The notes under the pieces are model-generated. The model searched no databases, was not told where the DNA came from, and worked only from the letters and a program-made list of their open reading frames with translations. From Hafnia paralvei ATCC 29927 (GTDB lineage Bacteria; Pseudomonadota; Gammaproteobacteria; Enterobacterales; Enterobacteriaceae): a stretch of 64,000 nucleotides of DNA. Location of the stretch: contig NZ_LXET01000009.1 in NCBI RefSeq assembly GCF_001655005.1, positions 43,706 through 107,705 of the forward strand, in the 5' to 3' direction. The translations under genes and the position numbers were made by a program. This document shows, piece after piece, positions 56,951-63,831 of the stretch; position 1 is the stretch's first letter; every line of letters begins with the position of its first letter.

Positions 56951-58132
56951 ATGACCTCTTTGTTGACTGCTCGCCGCCGAATTAATCCCATCTATGCCGC
57001 GTTTTTGATTGTTGCATTCTTAACCGGAATTGCGGGAGCGCTTCAGGCTCCTACGCTAAGTTTATTTTTAACGACTGAAGTGAAGGTGCGTCCCCTTTGG
57101 GTTGGCCTCTTTTATACGGTGAATGCGATTGTCGGGATTGCGGTGAGTTTCTTGCTAGCGAAGCGTTCCGATCGTCAGGGCGATCGTCGCAAACTGATCA
57201 TGTTTTGTTGCGCAATGGCGGTGGGAAACTGCCTGTTGTTTGCGTTTTGTCGCAGTTATTTGTTGCTGATCTCCGCAGGCGTTTTCTTGGCAGCGCTGGC
57301 GAATACGGGAATGCCGCAGATTTTTGCCTTAGCGCGTGAATATGCCGACCGTTCAGCCAGCGAAGTTGTGATGTTTAGTTCGGTGATGCGAGCACAGCTC
57401 TCTTTGGCATGGGTGATTGGGCCGCCGCTTTCATTCATGCTGGCGCTGAATTACGGCTTCACTTTTATGTATTTGATTGCTGCTGCCGTGTTTATTCTTG
57501 CGATTGTGCTGGTGGCCTTTATGTTGCCATCAATGCCCCGCACAGAAACCACGGGTGAAGCCGTCGTTATTCCCACCAATGCGTTTGGCGACAAAAACGT
57601 GGTGATGCTGTTTATCTCCTCCATGCTGATGTGGACCTGCAATACCATGTATATCATTGATATGCCGCTGTATATCACGCAAGATCTTGATCTGCCAGAA
57701 AATTTGGCAGGGCTCTTGATGGGGACTGCTGCAGGTTTAGAGATTCCCGCGATGATTCTAGCGGGTTACTACGTTAAACGTTTTGGCAAACGTAACATGA
57801 TGCTGTTTGCCGTTGCCGCTGGGGTCTTATTTTATGCCGGTTTGGTGTTGTTTAAATTCAAATTGGCATTGATGGTGTTGCAGTTGTTTAACGCGGTGTT
57901 CATCGGAATTATTGCCGGTATCGGCATGCTCTATTTTCAAGATTTAATGCCGGGTCGAGCGGGCAGTGCGACGACGCTATTCACTAACAGTATTTCGACC
58001 GGTGTGATTATGGCAGGGGTATTACAAGGCGCGCTGGCTGAAACATTAGGCCACTACGCGGTATATTGGCTAGCGACAGCGCTGGCGATAGTGGCCTTGA
58101 TTTTGTGCTTGCGAGTGCGAGATGTGCCTTAG
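56951..58132 (+). CDS. setA: MFS sugar efflux transporter (SetA/SotB family)
   Basis: 393 aa, 12 TM. Conserved position after sgrS. Confidence 0.85.
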   Translation: MTSLLTARRRINPIYAAFLIVAFLTGIAGALQAPTLSLFLTTEVKVRPLWVGLFYTVNAIVGIAVSFLLAKRSDRQGDRRKLIMFCCAMAVGNCLLFAFCRSYLLLISAGVFLAALANTGMPQIFALAREYADRSASEVVMFSSVMRAQLSLAWVIGPPLSFMLALNYGFTFMYLIAAAVFILAIVLVAFMLPSMPRTETTGEAVVIPTNAFGDKNVVMLFISSMLMWTCNTMYIIDMPLYITQDLDLPENLAGLLMGTAAGLEIPAMILAGYYVKRFGKRNMMLFAVAAGVLFYAGLVLFKFKLALMVLQLFNAVFIGIIAGIGMLYFQDLMPGRAGSATTLFTNSISTGVIMAGVLQGALAETLGHYAVYWLATALAIVALILCLRVRDVP

Positions 58133-58137
58133 GTAAT

Positions 58138-59715
58138 TTATTCTCCTTTGATGATCTCCCAACTTAGCCCAAAACGCGCCAGATATTTACGTAGACGGTC
58201 GGCGTCATTGGGCTGTTTTTTCAGTTGGCGTGATACGGAGAATAGCTTACGTCCTGCCTCGGATAAGCTGTCTGACGAGCGGCAGACGCTGATCACGCTG
58301 GCTAATTGGCTGCGATCGAACAGATCTAACTCGGGAAGATCGGGTAAAATTTCTGGCTGATCTTTTTGCCAGTTTTGTTGTAGCCGAGCGATTTCTTCTT
58401 GTACCAGTTCGTCATCAATACGGCCTGTATCCGCAAGTGTTGCCATACGGGTGACCGAAGCCGCTAGTTCACGGAAGTTTCCTCGCCATTCAGCCTGCTC
58501 GGAACAGGCAAATTGCAGATAGCGTTGACGTGCTTCTTTATTGAAACGCACCTGTGCTTGCTGTTCTTGGCTATAGCGGTTGAGTTCAAAATCCAGATTC
58601 GGCTCTATATCTTCTCGCCGCTGCGCCAAGCTGGGGAGAGGAAAAGTCCACATATTGATGCGCGCATATAAATCCTCGCGAAAACGTCCTTGCTTGACCC
58701 ATTGCCGCATATCGCGATGGGTGCCTGCAATGAGTTGAAAATCGCTGGAAACCTCTTTATCTGAGCCAAAAGGTAAAAACCTTTTTTCTTCGATTACTTT
58801 GAGCAGCATGGCCTGTTCATCGAGTCCTAACTCTCCGATCTCGTCCAAAAACAGCACGCCGCCGTCGGCTTCTCGCAGCAGGCCGCTACGCGCCTGTAGC
58901 GCACCGGTAAATGCCCCTTTGATGTGACCAAACAAGGTTGACATCGCGTTGTCCCCGCGTAGCGTCGCACAGTTTACGGCCACAAATCGCCCGCTAACTT
59001 TATGCCGTGATTGTCTCAACTGGTAAATACGCTGTGCCAAAAATGACTTACCCGCCCCGGTGGGGCCAGTCAGCAGAATAGGTGCCGTCGAACGTAAGGC
59101 AACGCGTTCAATCTGATCAATCAGCGTATTGAAGGTGGCATTACGAGTGGCAATCCCCGATTTCAAAAATGAAATTGAAGCCTGCTGTTCACGCTGGAAG
59201 CGACGAGTTAATTTGCTATAGCGACTAAGGTCAAGATCGATAATGGAGTAAACACCGGCGGGAGTGGCCTCAGTTTTCTCTTGGCTTTTAGGCGCTGGCG
59301 AGGTTTGTAGCAGGCTGGCTGGGAAATAGCGGGCTTCAGCGAGCAGGAACCAGCAAATTTGTACCACATGGGTGCCGGTGGTGATGTGGATTAAATACTC
59401 TTCGTTATCGGTATCGAAAGGGTAATGGGTGGCAAAGTCGAGAAATGCAGTATAAACCTCTTCAAAATCCCACGGGTCGTGCAGATTAACTTGATGCAGG
59501 CAAACCTGAGTGCTGCCGAGCTGGGCAATATCATCGCTTACCTGCTGCGCCATGCCGAGATCTCTTGGCTGATACAGAAGTTCGAGCCGGTCAATGGGCA
59601 AATCAGGCTGTTGGCATAGTCCTACCGTCGGTCGCCATTTATTCCAACGATTTGCTCGTTTACCGCGCTTATCCAGAACAGTGCCCAGCACACCAATAAC
59701 GACTCTGCGCTTCAT
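58138..59715 (-). CDS. rtcR: Sigma-54-dependent transcriptional activator RtcR (N-terminal CARF domain, AAA+ sigma-54 activator domain, C-terminal HTH)
   Basis: 525 aa. N-terminus MKRRVVIGVLGTVLD…WNKWRPTV…YLIHITTGTHVVQICWFLLAEARYFPA resembles E. coli RtcR. Central GAFTGA-containing AAA+ domain (…GHIKGAFTGA…). Confidence 0.85.
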   Translation of the reverse strand: MKRRVVIGVLGTVLDKRGKRANRWNKWRPTVGLCQQPDLPIDRLELLYQPRDLGMAQQVSDDIAQLGSTQVCLHQVNLHDPWDFEEVYTAFLDFATHYPFDTDNEEYLIHITTGTHVVQICWFLLAEARYFPASLLQTSPAPKSQEKTEATPAGVYSIIDLDLSRYSKLTRRFQREQQASISFLKSGIATRNATFNTLIDQIERVALRSTAPILLTGPTGAGKSFLAQRIYQLRQSRHKVSGRFVAVNCATLRGDNAMSTLFGHIKGAFTGALQARSGLLREADGGVLFLDEIGELGLDEQAMLLKVIEEKRFLPFGSDKEVSSDFQLIAGTHRDMRQWVKQGRFREDLYARINMWTFPLPSLAQRREDIEPNLDFELNRYSQEQQAQVRFNKEARQRYLQFACSEQAEWRGNFRELAASVTRMATLADTGRIDDELVQEEIARLQQNWQKDQPEILPDLPELDLFDRSQLASVISVCRSSDSLSEAGRKLFSVSRQLKKQPNDADRLRKYLARFGLSWEIIKGE

Positions 59716-59851
59716 TGTTTATCCTAAATTATAAATGACGATATTTTAAGATAACTTTACACGCATTTGCTTCAAGGCGATATCGCGAGCGATAAAAATA
59801 AATGTCTTATTTTTCATGTGATTAATTTTTTATTTTGCTGTTTTTAAAAAA

Positions 59852-59867
59852 TGGCACGCTTTTGGCA
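59852..59867 (+). promoter_or_regulatory. Sigma-54 (-24/-12) promoter divergent from rtcR
   Basis: TGGCACGcttTTGGCA vs consensus TGGCACG-N4-TTGCW. GG and GC are at the correct 10-bp spacing, with one mismatch. Predicted TSS ~59878. Confidence 0.6.
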
Positions 59868-59959
59868 ATATTTATAACGCCACTTGCTGGGGTCGTAGGG
59901 ATTCTAAACTCCCACCGGCACATTAAGAACGCCAAGTTGCGTTATCTGCGATGTGTTCT

Positions 59960-60010
59960 GCCAGCGGTAGATGGCCTGGTTAACCTGGGTTCGAATCCCA
60001 GAACATCAAA
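59960..60010 (+). ncRNA. tRNA-like module (T-arm mimic) within the ~350-nt sigma-54-driven leader
   Basis: CTGGG-TTCGAAT-CCCAG (59985–60001) is a perfect 5-bp T-stem with a 7-nt TΨC-type loop, followed by AACATCA with no CCA. It is not a canonical tRNA, since acceptor pairing is imperfect. Confidence 0.5.
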
Positions 60011-60225
60011 TATTCCTGATGGGTAGGAAATTTAGAAATTTATTGTAGTGCCAGCCCGTGTAGCCAAGCCGTTAATGGTTACCGTCGTAGAAAACCAGCT
60101 AACACGCTGGGCAGGTGGCAAGGTCTCGTTAGCGCGAGTATCGGCTAGAGAGTTCTCCCCACCCGCTTCGCGTCACTGCCCGTTTTCTAAGACAGCGGGC
60201 TAATTAATCACAAGGAAGAAAAAAT

Positions 60226-61362
60226 ATGCGTAAGAACATCATTATACAAAAAGGGCAGATCGGTTTACTGACGAAGAAAGGCGATTATCAGAAAGTACTC
60301 GAAGCGGGAGAATATCGCTTTTTTGACTGGACTAATCAGTTGGCAGTGACGGTGGTTAATCTTAGCGATAGCAGAGTGGAACCCGCACTGGCCGAACATT
60401 TACGCAGCTACCAGCCTGAGTGGGTTGAACGCTATTGCACCGCGGTGGATTTATCTGAACAAGAGATCGGCCTGCGCTATGAAAATGACATTTTACAGGA
60501 AATATTGCCACCGGGGACGCGTCGTCTTTATTGGTTGAATGGCAATCAGCAACGCATCGAACGAATTGAGGCTAATAATGTAGAAGTACCGTCAGAGATT
60601 GTGGCTGCGCTGCATCAACCGAAATTACGCAACCGTACGATTAAAGGTGGAGAAGGGGTGTTATTGGTGCAGGTGCCAGCGTGGCATGTCGGCATATTAA
60701 AAATTGATGGTGCAACACAGGCGTTGTTAAGCCCTGGTATTAGTGGATATTGGCGCTTCAACCATGCGGTGGAAGCCGAAATTGTTGATACCCGTTTGCA
60801 GGTGTTAGAAGTCAGCGGGCAAGAGATATTGACCCGTGACAAAGTGAATCTTCGGTTGAACTTAGCCGCTAACTGGCGCTACAGCGATGTGCTGCAATCA
60901 TTTGCTTTGGTTGCTAAACCGCTGGAGCACATTTATCGCGAGTTGCAGTTCGCGCTGCGTGAGGCTGTTGGTACACGCACATTAGACGAGTTGCTGGAGA
61001 ATAAGCAGATTATAGACGACATCGTGAGTGAGCAGGTGTCGCGGAAACTGGTTGGCTATGGCATTGAGGTCGTATCGCTAGGTGTTAAAGACATTGTTTT
61101 ACCGGGTGATATGAAAACCATTTTGTCGCGTGTGGTTGAAGCGGAAAAATTGGCTCAGGCTAATGTGATCCGCCGTCGTGAAGAAACCTCTGCGACGCGA
61201 TCGTTATTAAATACGGCGAAAGTCATGGAAAACAACCCCGTGGCGCTGCGCCTAAAAGAGTTAGAAACGTTGGAAAGAGTCGCAGAGCGTATCGATAAAA
61301 TATCCGTGTTTGGTGGATTAGATCAGGTGCTAAACGGGCTTATACAAATTAAAGGGATGTAA
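60226..61362 (+). CDS. SPFH/Band-7 (stomatin/slipin-like) domain protein with a ~190-aa N-terminal extension and no predicted TM segment
   Basis: The C-terminal half aligns with the stomatin core (…LDELLENKQIIDDIVSEQVSRKLVGYGIEVVSLGVKDIVLPGDMKTILSRVVEAEKLAQANVI…ALRLKELETLERVAE…). RBS AAGGAAG is 7 nt upstream. Confidence 0.75.
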   Translation: MRKNIIIQKGQIGLLTKKGDYQKVLEAGEYRFFDWTNQLAVTVVNLSDSRVEPALAEHLRSYQPEWVERYCTAVDLSEQEIGLRYENDILQEILPPGTRRLYWLNGNQQRIERIEANNVEVPSEIVAALHQPKLRNRTIKGGEGVLLVQVPAWHVGILKIDGATQALLSPGISGYWRFNHAVEAEIVDTRLQVLEVSGQEILTRDKVNLRLNLAANWRYSDVLQSFALVAKPLEHIYRELQFALREAVGTRTLDELLENKQIIDDIVSEQVSRKLVGYGIEVVSLGVKDIVLPGDMKTILSRVVEAEKLAQANVIRRREETSATRSLLNTAKVMENNPVALRLKELETLERVAERIDKISVFGGLDQVLNGLIQIKGM

Positions 61363-62165
61363 TGTTACCTATGGAACTCAGAACTTCATGCGGCGTAAGC
61401 GCCGCAATGCGGATGCGTATTCAACAGACGCTGTGTGCGTTGGAAGAGGAATATCAGATACGCATATTGTACGCCTGTGAATCAGGCAGCCGAGGCTGGG
61501 GATTTGCTTCAACGGACAGTGATTATGATGTGCGCTTTATTTACGTTCATCGACCAGAATGGTATCTGCGAGTTGAGCCCGGTCGTGATGTGATAGAAAT
61601 GCCAATTGACGATGAGTTAGACGTGTGTGGCTGGGAGCTACGTAAAACGTTGGGGTTGATAAAACGCTCGAACCCAACGTTGATGGAATGGCTGGATTCC
61701 CCGATTGTTTATCGCAATGAGGAAAGGGCGACCGCTGCATTAAGAGCATTGTTGCCCGATTACTTCTCTGGCTTACGTGGGCGTTATCACTATTTGTCGA
61801 TGGCGCGGAAAAACTTTCGTGGGTATCTGCAAGGTGAAGAAGTTCGCTTGAAAAAATACTTCTACGTGTTGCGGCCATTGCTGGCGGTGCGTTGGATTGA
61901 AGCAGGTAAAGGTGTTCCGCCTATGCGTTTCGATCAATTAGTGGCTGGCACTGTTGATGACGCTGATTTATTGGATGAAATAGCGCAATTATTGTATGCA
62001 AAATGTGAAGCCAGCGAAGCTAAGTATGGGCCTCGGATGAAGAAGATCCATGAGTTCATTCAATATGAGCTGGATGACAATCTTTCTCGTTGTGAAATGG
62101 TAGACAATGTTGCATGTAGTGATGATGTTTTGAACCGATTGCTGTTTCAGGAGGTTAATTGTTAA
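61362..62165 (+). CDS. Pol-beta-superfamily nucleotidyltransferase (minimal NTase fold, ~267 aa)
   Basis: GS…D.D motif ACESGSRGWGFASTDSDYDVRFIY (hG[GS]x9-13Dh[DE]h). Start overlaps the upstream stop (TAATG). The second Met at 61371 is an alternative start. Confidence 0.65.
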   Translation: MLPMELRTSCGVSAAMRMRIQQTLCALEEEYQIRILYACESGSRGWGFASTDSDYDVRFIYVHRPEWYLRVEPGRDVIEMPIDDELDVCGWELRKTLGLIKRSNPTLMEWLDSPIVYRNEERATAALRALLPDYFSGLRGRYHYLSMARKNFRGYLQGEEVRLKKYFYVLRPLLAVRWIEAGKGVPPMRFDQLVAGTVDDADLLDEIAQLLYAKCEASEAKYGPRMKKIHEFIQYELDDNLSRCEMVDNVACSDDVLNRLLFQEVNC

Positions 62166-62171
62166 GTTGAG

Positions 62172-62211
62172 CAGTAAGCGCAGATGAGGATAACTGTGCT
62201 TACTGATTTTT
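62172..62211 (+). terminator. Strong rho-independent terminator ending the SPFH–NTase operon
   Basis: CAGTAAGCGCAG-atgaggataa-CTGTGCTTACTG followed by ATTTTT. Confidence 0.8.
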
Positions 62212-62358
62212 GGATAAACCACTGTCATACACCCAATCGCATGCACATGGCCCGTGCGCAGTGAGCCTATAAAACGTATGATGTAAGGTGCAAAACCTAA
62301 CTACGCTTGCCTGTCTCGCTTTGAGATACCGACTCACTTTGGAAGAGTTGATGACAAT

Positions 62359-63831
62359 ATGGGTAAATTAACACCGCTTAAACCTATACCTTCGCTGATC
62401 TCCATCGCTATCGCATTGATTATCTGGTTCGTGATCCCTGTGCCTGAGGGCGTTAGTCCAAATGCATGGCACTTGCTTGCGCTATTCGTGGGCACCATTG
62501 CAGCCATTATTGGTAAAGCGATGCCGATTGGTGCCGTGTCCATTATTGCTATTGCGCTGGTGGCCGTTACACAAGTCACGAATCCGGGTAAGCCCACCGC
62601 TGCGCTGGACGATGCGCTCAGTGGTTTTTCAAATCAGCTGATTTGGCTGATCGGGATTTCCATCATGATTTCCCTGAGCCTCAATAAAACGGGGCTGGGG
62701 GCACGCATTGGTTATTACTTTATTTCGCTGTTTGGCAAAAAAACGCTGGGCATTGCCTATGCGTTGGCGCTTGCTGAAACAACGTTAGCGCCGGTTACGC
62801 CAAGTAATACCGCGCGCGGTGGGGGGATCATCCACCCCATAATGAAGTCGATTGCCGATAGTTTTGGCTCGAAGCCGGAGCCGGGCTCAACGGAGAAAAT
62901 TGGTCGCTATTTATCGTTAGTGAACTACAACATCAACCCCGTAACGTCGGCGATGTTTATCACCGCGACTGCGCCCAACCCGTTAATTGTGAATCTTTTA
63001 CTGAAAGGAACGGATTCGACCTTTGAGCTGACATGGTCGATGTGGGCAATTGCTGCATTGGTACCGGGCATTATTTCTCTGCTGGTGATGCCGTTAATTG
63101 TTTACTGGCTGTATCCACCGGAGATTAAAAGCACGCCTGATGCGCCGCGATTTGCCAAAGATAAACTGCGTGATCTGGGGCCAATTTCGCTGGCGGAAAA
63201 AATTACCCTAGGGGTATTCGCGCTGTTGCTCTTCCTGTGGGCAGGAATCCCGGCTTTCCTATTGGGGAGTGACTGGACGGTAAATCCAACCACCGCAGCA
63301 TTTATCGGATTGTCTATTCTGTTGGCCAGCGGTGTTTTGAGTTGGGATGACGTGCTCAAGCACAAAGGTGCTTGGGATACGGTAGTGTGGTTTGCCGCGC
63401 TTGTGATGATGGCGACCTATCTGGGAAAATTAGGGCTGATTAGTTGGCTCTCCCAAACGGTCGGTGGTGCGATTTCTCATCTTGGCATGGGCTGGATTGG
63501 CGGGATGATTTTGCTGACGCTGGTGTACGTCTATTCGCACTATTTCTTTGCCAGTACCACTGCGCACATCACCGCTATGTTCGCCGCGTTCTTTGCCGCA
63601 GGATTGGCGCTGGGCGCACCGCCTGCGCTGCTGGGTCTGGTATTAGCATTTTCCTCCTCGCTGATGATGTCCTTAACCCACTATGGTACAGGGACGGCGC
63701 CTATTATTTTTGGTTCTGGATATGTGACGCTGGGGGAATGGTGGAAAACCGGTTTTGTCCTTAGTGTAATTAACCTGCTGATTTGGATGGTGATTGGGAG
63801 TTTGTGGTGGAAGTGGTTGGGGTATTGGTAA
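62359..63831 (+). CDS. DASS-family (TtdT/CitT-like) dicarboxylate/anion transporter
   Basis: 490 aa, ~12 TM. Overall resemblance to E. coli TtdT (…SGFSNQLIWLI…; …APVTPSNTARGGGII…). Confidence 0.75.
   Translation: MGKLTPLKPIPSLISIAIALIIWFVIPVPEGVSPNAWHLLALFVGTIAAIIGKAMPIGAVSIIAIALVAVTQVTNPGKPTAALDDALSGFSNQLIWLIGISIMISLSLNKTGLGARIGYYFISLFGKKTLGIAYALALAETTLAPVTPSNTARGGGIIHPIMKSIADSFGSKPEPGSTEKIGRYLSLVNYNINPVTSAMFITATAPNPLIVNLLLKGTDSTFELTWSMWAIAALVPGIISLLVMPLIVYWLYPPEIKSTPDAPRFAKDKLRDLGPISLAEKITLGVFALLLFLWAGIPAFLLGSDWTVNPTTAAFIGLSILLASGVLSWDDVLKHKGAWDTVVWFAALVMMATYLGKLGLISWLSQTVGGAISHLGMGWIGGMILLTLVYVYSHYFFASTTAHITAMFAAFFAAGLALGAPPALLGLVLAFSSSLMMSLTHYGTGTAPIIFGSGYVTLGEWWKTGFVLSVINLLIWMVIGSLWWKWLGYW

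Follow-up and report, generated by a model that had tools for sequence, protein, structure and literature searches.

In some bacteria, the gene of the RNA ligase RtcB has two neighbors, one for a Band-7 protein and one for a predicted "band 7-associated (b7a) tRNA" (Burroughs and Aravind 2016, as cited in a 2018 report from the Wolin and Xiong laboratories, 10.1101/312249). The nucleotidyltransferase RlaP was named by Burroughs and Aravind in 2016 for its occurrence in operons with RNA ligases. In Pseudomonas, rlaP is located between rtcB and rtcA and is controlled by RtcR (Carruthers et al., December 2025 preprint, PMC12776372). Two Pseudomonas RlaP proteins (PfRlaP and PaRlaP) add one or two nucleoside monophosphates to the 3'-OH ends of RNA in vitro and prefer damaged RNAs (PMC12776372). 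RtcR itself is activated by 5' tRNA halves ending in a 2',3'-cyclic phosphate, which bind its CARF domain and lead to oligomerization (PMC7790460). Here we describe a locus of Hafnia paralvei ATCC 29927 in which rtcR lies divergent to a two-gene operon encoding a Band-7 protein and RlaP. The locus is within a 64,000-nucleotide (nt) stretch of contig NZ_LXET01000009.1 (assembly GCF_001655005.1, positions 43,706 to 107,705, forward strand), the whole of which is referred to as the window. As judged from its sequence, the locus is likely to be a ligase-less derivative of the RtcR-controlled Band-7/b7a-RNA/RtcB/RlaP RNA-repair operon that is still a working unit. Its features, in window coordinates, are as follows.

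58138 to 59715, minus strand: rtcR, 525 amino acids (aa), with a CARF-type sensor domain, a sigma-54 AAA+ activator domain and a helix-turn-helix domain (Pfam, NCBIfam, tblastn).
59718 to 59754, no strand given: conserved block by the rtcR start codon, a candidate RtcR upstream activating site (alignment).
59852 to 59867, plus strand: predicted sigma-54 (-24/-12) promoter TGGCACGCTTTTGGCA (pattern scan and conservation).
59868 to 60015, plus strand: predicted 5' domain of the leader RNA, comprising P0, P1, P2 and a T-arm (covariation, covariance model and minimum free energy (MFE) fold).
60004 to 60021, plus strand: predicted short hairpin CAUCA/UGAUG, in the place where other lineages have the cloverleaf b7a-tRNA (MFE fold).
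60090 to 60187, plus strand: predicted 3' domain of the leader RNA, with nested long-range helices (RNAalifold on 19 leaders).
60212 to 60218, plus strand: ribosome-binding site AAGGAAG of the Band-7 gene, 7 nt 5' of the ATG (sequence inspection).
60226 to 61362, plus strand: Band-7/SPFH (stomatin-like) gene, 378 aa (PF01145).
61362 to 62165, plus strand: RlaP nucleotidyltransferase gene, 267 aa (PF10127).
62172 to 62215, plus strand: predicted intrinsic terminator with a 12-bp stem, a 10-nt loop and U5 (folding against shuffles).

The preliminary description of this DNA had proposed an RtcR orthologue divergent to an operon with a sigma-54 promoter, a structured leader of approximately 348 nt, translationally coupled genes for a cytoplasmic SPFH protein and a Pol-beta nucleotidyltransferase, and a strong terminator, with no rtcB, rtcA or Ro60 in the window, and all of these elements are recovered by the present analysis. 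The regulator does fit the RtcR models, with matches to the Pfam families RtcR (269 bits, 1.5e-80) and Sigma54_activat (174 bits, 2.2e-51), and it passes the NCBIfam equivalog NF038308 (RNA_repair_RtcR) at 838 bits, the cut-off being 650. Its full-length identity to Escherichia coli RtcR is 62%. The Band-7 open reading frame (ORF) contains a PF01145 Band_7/SPFH domain (102.8 bits), and the RlaP ORF matches PF10127 over profile positions 1 to 247 of 249 (321 bits, cut-off 23, 7.7e-96). The two genes overlap at TAATG, where the ATG of rlaP shares bases with the TAA of the Band-7 gene. The operon is closed by a predicted terminator stem at 62172-62205, followed by U5, that folds with -18.1 kcal/mol (z = -4.55; 0 of 200 shuffles are as stable) and that escaped a simple consensus scan because its loop is 10 nt long.

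The sequence TGGCACGCTTTTGGCA at 59852-59867 is the sole match in 64 kb to the pattern TGGCACG-N4-TKGCW, for which the chance expectation is 0.04, and its position is conserved. Nearly all loci with an upstream RtcR have exactly one such promoter, 300 to 700 nt 5' of the Band-7 gene, and no sigma-54 promoter of the same kind was found in related loci without RtcR. It is on motif and conservation that this predicted sigma-54 promoter is assigned as the driver of the operon. By the start codon of rtcR, a block of approximately 37 nt at 59718-59754 (TTTATCC..ATAA..CGATAT..AAGATAA) is made up mostly of invariant columns in a four-genus alignment, and the E. coli rtcR-rtcB intergenic region (locus L094, 5215-5265) has a similar block, ATATCC..ATAAAAGACGATAT. 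The block is probably an RtcR binding site, for which the alignment makes it a candidate.

The search for a ligase covered the 64-kb window and 10 kb downstream of it. RtcB (proteins of three species), RtcA and KptA gave no tblastn match in the window, and no rtcB (PF01139) or rtcA is present within 10 kb downstream. The gene cluster thus holds no RNA ligase, whether RtcB or of the ATP-grasp type. A scan of the larger ORFs in the window revealed no TROVE/Ro60 protein, nor is there one among the neighboring genes. A survey of gene neighborhoods was carried out on 84 loci with this Band-7 subfamily, collected from one genome-collection scan and individual protein look-ups, with neighbors typed by tblastn. 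RtcB is encoded immediately 3' of Band-7 in 64 of the 84 loci, and 36 carry RtcR, Band-7, RtcB and RlaP, with or without RtcA. The arrangement rtcR<>Band-7-RtcB-RlaP(-RtcA) is the common form, and such operons, some of them with RtcA or KptA at the end, are found in Citrobacter, Erwinia, Phytobacter, Xenorhabdus, Pseudomonas, Burkholderia and Azonexus. RtcR, Band-7 and RlaP without RtcB recur in nine loci, all of them from Enterobacterales (9 of the 21 Enterobacterales loci sampled): Hafnia, Klebsiella michiganensis, Klebsiella oxytoca, Klebsiella sp. MISC125, Citrobacter sp. Cu233, Superficieibacter, Mangrovibacter, Brenneria bubanii and Lonsdalea iberica. The cargo had been presented as undescribed for RtcR, and this has to be divided: the pairing of an SPFH protein with a nucleotidyltransferase is known from predicted RtcB-centered operons, while the distinctive feature is the absence of a ligase from an otherwise intact operon of known type, in which the RNA is also reduced. 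The locus does not represent a categorically new system.

On comparison with these relatives, rtcB, which normally lies between the Band-7 gene and rlaP, is precisely removed in Hafnia. An rtcB-bearing Citrobacter locus and the ligase-less one of K. michiganensis occupy the same chromosomal site, which indicates that the loss took place in situ. None of 200 bootstrap trees (neighbor-joining, RtcR and Band-7) recovers the ligase-less loci as a single clade, and the parsimony minimum is four to five state changes in 190 of 200 replicates. These trees suggest that rtcB was lost several times within Enterobacterales, about four or five. The junctions between the Band-7 gene and rlaP differ. The codons overlap in Hafnia and Superficieibacter; a 5-nt spacer is present in most of the Klebsiella clade (in K. 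michiganensis, the longest frame runs into the Band-7 gene); and 30 to 43 nt separate the genes in Mangrovibacter, Brenneria and Lonsdalea. In Enterobacteriaceae, Band-7 and RtcB both finish in AAAGGATAA, a 9-nt direct repeat that brackets rtcB. This repeat could have mediated a clean deletion of rtcB, which would offer an easy path to recurrent loss.

The ratio of nonsynonymous to synonymous substitution rates (dN/dS) in the ligase-less clades is 0.05 to 0.15 for RtcR, Band-7 and RlaP, at dS values of up to approximately 1.3, and pairs that keep rtcB give 0.045 to 0.08. The RlaP motif ESGSRGWGFAS.DSDYD is kept in all relatives, with or without rtcB, and the promoter and the covarying leader helices are retained in all rtcB-less lineages. 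The low dN/dS, the intact RlaP motif and the retained promoter and leader therefore suggest that the remaining genes were kept working long after rtcB was lost.

Other variants were met in the survey. The converse variant, rtcR<>Band-7-RtcB without RlaP, is found in Proteus (L021, L025, L026), in a Providencia metagenome-assembled genome (MAG; L055) and in Burkholderia (L050, L053, L075), and therefore each accessory gene can be lost separately. Some Burkholderiales loci (L061, L065, L082, L083, L091 and others) have the Band-7 subfamily with no RtcR, RtcB, RlaP or sigma-54 promoter within 8 kb; in L061 and L065 a tRNA-like gene is still present approximately 300 nt upstream. An extra small ORF lies between Band-7 and rtcB in Pseudomonas and Chitiniphilus (L029 9141-9562, L036 9132-9557, L059 9138-9433), and its product is basic, with Cys-x2-Cys pairs, and zinc-ribbon-like in appearance. 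In Xenorhabdus hominickii, a KptA/Tpt1 RNA 2'-phosphotransferase gene (PF01885; L013 11688-12212) follows rlaP. In Gilliamella intestini (L045 10855-17117), approximately 6 kb of AT-rich, foreign-looking DNA separates rtcB from the edge of the contig, where RlaP is matched in part.

The leader is approximately 348 nt long if transcription begins near 59878, and it folds with -121.5 kcal/mol (z = -3.6). The closing stem P0 pairs 59879-59890 with 59961-59975, so that its start approximately coincides with the predicted transcription start, and it encloses the hairpin P1 (59895-59915) and the long stem P2 (59917-59957). A canonical T-arm, CUGGGUUCGAAUCCCAG, follows at 59985-60001. The MFE fold reproduces P0, P1 and the T-arm. 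In an alignment of 19 Enterobacterales leaders from promoter to start codon, RNAalifold predicts 53 pairs, 38 of them with compensatory changes. For the proposed 5'-domain structure, 89.6% of cells are paired in these 19 sequences versus 41 to 48% with slid partners, compensatory changes occur in 25 of 33 pairs, and 0 of 500 shuffles reach the observed values. The 3' domain accounts for 21 of the 53 RNAalifold pairs (alignment columns 269-381, mapped to window coordinates), most of them compensatory.

A covariance model of the leader (R1), trained on Enterobacterales sequences alone, scores the Hafnia leader at 110 bits and gives hits over its whole length in Azonexus, Dechloromonas, Burkholderia, Rhodocyclaceae and Undibacterium. 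Each betaproteobacterial match begins just past the sigma-54 promoter and stops where the tRNA-like gene called by ARAGORN/Rfam starts. Among 34 leaders of Gamma- and Betaproteobacteria, 88% of cells are paired and compensatory cells number 195 versus 29 to 53 in controls, in an alignment that was fitted to the covariance model and so leans towards the proposed structure. Covariation of the 5' domain was thus assessed in Gamma- and Betaproteobacteria and that of the 3' domain in Enterobacterales. The order in Betaproteobacteria is 5' domain, cloverleaf b7a-tRNA and 3' domain, and Pseudomonas has two tandem tRNA-like genes (ARAGORN/Rfam). No cloverleaf tRNA was found in the Hafnia leader by ARAGORN, also at 70% thresholds, or by the Rfam tRNA model, and 21 of 21 Enterobacterales loci have no cloverleaf tRNA-like gene. 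By this comparison, the Enterobacterales, including Hafnia, appear to have lost the cloverleaf and retain the 5' domain with its T-arm, a short hairpin and the covarying 3' domain. Hairpins of different sequence are seen at the equivalent place in the Klebsiella, Citrobacter, Phytobacter and Lonsdalea rows (read by eye). Against Rfam, the region as well as the isolated leader returned nothing but a bare T-arm fragment, with no match to YrlA, and the Burkholderia leader has no significant Rfam match except its tRNA gene. Judged by its covariation, the leader is a conserved structured RNA absent from Rfam and not a plain untranslated region.

Several candidate structures in the leader were discarded. 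A low-threshold ARAGORN call proved to be a meaningless 93-nt fold on the minus strand. An "acceptor-like" GAUG/CAUC stem around the T-arm of Hafnia and the short-leader genera was rejected, as its 3' strand pairs better downstream as a small hairpin and its 5' strand clashes with the covarying P0 stem. An upstream GCGAA/UUCGC stem around the T-arm is possible in Erwinia, Franconibacter, Superficieibacter and Mangrovibacter. An automated column-pair search on one leader alignment was too noisy to use. A G-U wobble in P2 (59918/59956; alignment columns 61 and 133) is invariant in 34 of 34 leaders of the two classes, and the pair beside it is G-U in Enterobacterales. The invariant wobble may be a protein- or metal-binding site.

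The Band-7 protein has an N-terminal beta-rich domain (approximately residues 1-135), an SPFH domain and long C-terminal helices, and the succession of SPFH domain and coiled-coil helix is that of SPFH/stomatin-type proteins. Its C-terminal half resembles stomatins by sequence, with matches to Pyrococcus horikoshii stomatin (2.8e-19) and to human stomatin 16-mer entries. Stomatin, HflK/C and QmcA are anchored in the membrane by a transmembrane helix or hairpin, whereas no such anchor was found in the Hafnia protein, whose maximal 19-residue hydropathy is 1.35 versus 2.97 for a SetA control; it has no hydrophobic segment. Its full-length identity to the Band-7 proteins encoded directly 5' of RtcB is 55 to 72%. 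An AlphaFold2 model has a mean predicted local distance difference test score (pLDDT) of 65, with approximately 80 in the N-terminal domain. The best Foldseek matches of the model are to the stomatin, HflK/C and prohibitin cages, and chains of the major vault protein align over a longer span (419 to 470 columns) with low template modeling (TM) scores of 0.33 to 0.35. The Band-7 protein may reasonably be read as a soluble scaffold that would form oligomers and bind the leader RNA. In Band-7 proteins of approximately 510 to 530 aa from Xenorhabdus, Gilliamella, Snodgrassella, a Providencia MAG, Burkholderia pyrrocinia and Pseudomonas soli (loci L013, L045, L054, L055, L056, L057 and L093), the N-terminal domain of approximately 145 aa is doubled, which recalls the repeat domains of the major vault protein.

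The GS...DxD catalytic motif of the Pol-beta fold is present in Hafnia RlaP (ESGSRGWGFASTDSDYD), and no solved relative was found by sequence search of the PDB. From the in vitro activity of PfRlaP and PaRlaP, we infer that Hafnia RlaP would extend the 3'-OH ends of RNA. According to the authors who described that activity, the 3'-OH product is no substrate for RtcB (PMC12776372). Since RtcB could not join this product, a ligase-independent role for RlaP becomes more plausible.

Ten other large ORFs of the window are housekeeping genes, including surA, pdxA, lptD, rapA, polB, carA and kefC, and the 10 kb past the window in eight Hafnia contigs encode a DASS transporter, leuDCBA and leuO. The layout of the locus is identical in all eight of the Hafnia contigs listed. 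Its three proteins match entries of H. paralvei ATCC 29927 exactly. It occurs in H. paralvei and H. alvei, with the H. alvei relatives at 90% identity, and its base composition is unremarkable and gives no foreign-island signal. Compared with the E. coli order thiBPQ-sgrR-setA-leuDCBA, Hafnia carries rtcR, the operon and the DASS transporter gene between setA and leuD (window 56951-63831).

In the proposed mechanism, tRNA damage would produce cyclic-phosphate tRNA halves that bind RtcR, and RtcR would oligomerize and open the sigma-54 promoter. The leader of approximately 350 nt would serve as the RNA partner of a Band-7 oligomer, as Y RNA does for Ro60, and would perhaps be cut out of the mRNA. 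RlaP would add one or two nucleotides to the 3'-OH ends of damaged RNAs. The module of RNA, Band-7 and RlaP would act without a co-encoded ligase, for example by restoring or tagging trimmed RNA 3' ends, and sealing, if it takes place, would depend on a ligase from another locus. More tentatively, the leader RNA, a vault- or stomatin-like Band-7 oligomer and RlaP might form a self-sufficient, ligase-independent ribonucleoprotein that is switched on by RtcR upon tRNA cutting and that rebuilds or tags 3' ends, the ligase being an optional part that enterics have repeatedly discarded. Perhaps the ligase was discarded since re-ligation is useless or harmful in enterics.

It is also possible, if rather doubtful, that the function of the operon is unchanged, RtcB or another ligase encoded elsewhere in the genome sealing the ends while the operon, with Band-7 and RlaP, serves as the usual accessory arm of RtcB repair. 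RtcB occurs very widely, and a genome may have more than one copy (in Ralstonia, a pair lies within 6 kb at locus L046), and the physical linkage of the Band-7 subfamily to RtcB in 64 of 84 loci points to a functional partnership. However, an unlinked ligase would fall outside the control of this RtcR promoter and could not use the 3'-OH product of RlaP if it were RtcB (PMC12776372), and from the repeated, precise loss of rtcB alone it seems that these lineages can dispense with the ligase or bear a cost from it. A literature search on Hafnia and rtcB returned nothing relevant.

A new anti-phage or abortive-infection system, with RtcR as the sensor of infection and the nucleotidyltransferase as a toxic effector or signal synthase, is a very unlikely reading of the locus. 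Defense was one of the roles suggested in the preliminary description, and the CARF-type sensor of RtcR, its match to the RtcR-like CARF_AAA_HTH model of PADLOC and the presence of the CBASS and cGAS signal synthases among Pol-beta nucleotidyltransferases are in keeping with it. The suggestion finds no backing in the operon itself: Band-7 and RlaP match no model of PADLOC-DB 2.0, RlaP modifies the 3' ends of RNA in vitro and has no known production of cyclic nucleotides (PMC12776372), the orthologous genes usually flank an RNA ligase and cyclase, and the locus lies among housekeeping genes with unremarkable base composition. That the operon is a decaying remnant, non-working since the deletion of its ligase and still awaiting purge, is most improbable, for although the pathway-defining enzyme is missing, every ORF is intact, dN/dS is low at high dS in the rtcB-less clades, the RlaP catalytic motif, promoter and covarying helices are conserved, and the locus is fixed across the Hafnia contigs.

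Several points count against the reading of the locus as a ligase-less operon that still works. The working unit is predicted from sequence. RNAs of the b7a type are predicted and were never validated experimentally (10.1101/312249). The activity of RlaP was observed only in vitro, with two Pseudomonas enzymes from rtcB-rlaP-rtcA operons (PMC12776372). The resemblance of Band-7 to the vault protein is suggestive only, coming from a model of moderate confidence (pLDDT 65). The number of losses depends on neighbor-joining trees in which some sister pairs are weakly supported (Hafnia with Erwinia in 67 of 200, Superficieibacter with Franconibacter in 62 of 200). Additionally, an unlinked rtcB or other RNA ligase may complete a conventional repair.

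The ligase-less operons offer a clean setting, without RtcB, for the in vivo roles of RlaP, of the RtcB-linked Band-7 proteins and of the associated RNA. They are under purifying selection in tractable enterics (H. paralvei, H. alvei and the K. oxytoca complex), and they bear on the puzzle of why RlaP makes a 3'-OH product that RtcB cannot join. From the loci surveyed, a conserved leader RNA that Rfam does not contain is defined as well.

Among known systems, the eukaryotic vault (major vault protein, vault RNA and TEP1) is an analogy and not a homologous system. Both have a soluble protein with one or more beta-rich N-terminal repeat domains, an SPFH-like shoulder and a long helix, together with a small structured RNA. 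The Hafnia Band-7 protein, in contrast, has only 378 aa and one N-terminal repeat and is thus much the smaller of the two, its TM-scores to vault chains are low (0.33 to 0.35, from a model of moderate confidence), and a cage is hypothetical. The rsr-yrlBA-rtcBA operon of Salmonella is likewise an RtcR/sigma-54 operon and encodes a ring- or cage-forming scaffold beside a tRNA-like structured noncoding RNA (10.1101/312249), but the scaffold of Hafnia is SPFH rather than Ro60, its leader has no YrlA match, and the operon has no ligase or cyclase. E. coli rtcR<>rtcBA shares the divergent RtcR (62% identical), the sigma-54 promoter and the similar block by rtcR, and the activating signal common to the two RtcR proteins is presumably tRNA halves with a 2',3'-cyclic phosphate, by analogy with the known ligand (PMC7790460). 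The E. coli leader, however, is approximately 38 nt long with no structured RNA, and the cargo is a ligase and a cyclase without Band-7 or RlaP. In the rtcB-rlaP-rtcA operon of Pseudomonas, an RlaP of the same Pfam family with conserved catalytic residues is also under RtcR; there it lies between ligase and cyclase, whereas in Hafnia it follows Band-7 and has neither partner. The Hafnia operon differs from the operons of Betaproteobacteria and Pseudomonas in having no cloverleaf tRNA-like gene, and from the RtcB-bearing Band-7 operons in lacking rtcB and RtcA and in the overlap of its Band-7 and RlaP frames. With these RtcB-bearing Band-7 operons it shares the following: RtcR is 57 to 76%, Band-7 55 to 72% and RlaP 45 to 67% identical, the order and orientation of the genes are equal, the sigma-54 promoter is in the same position, and the leader has a homologous 5' domain with a T-arm.

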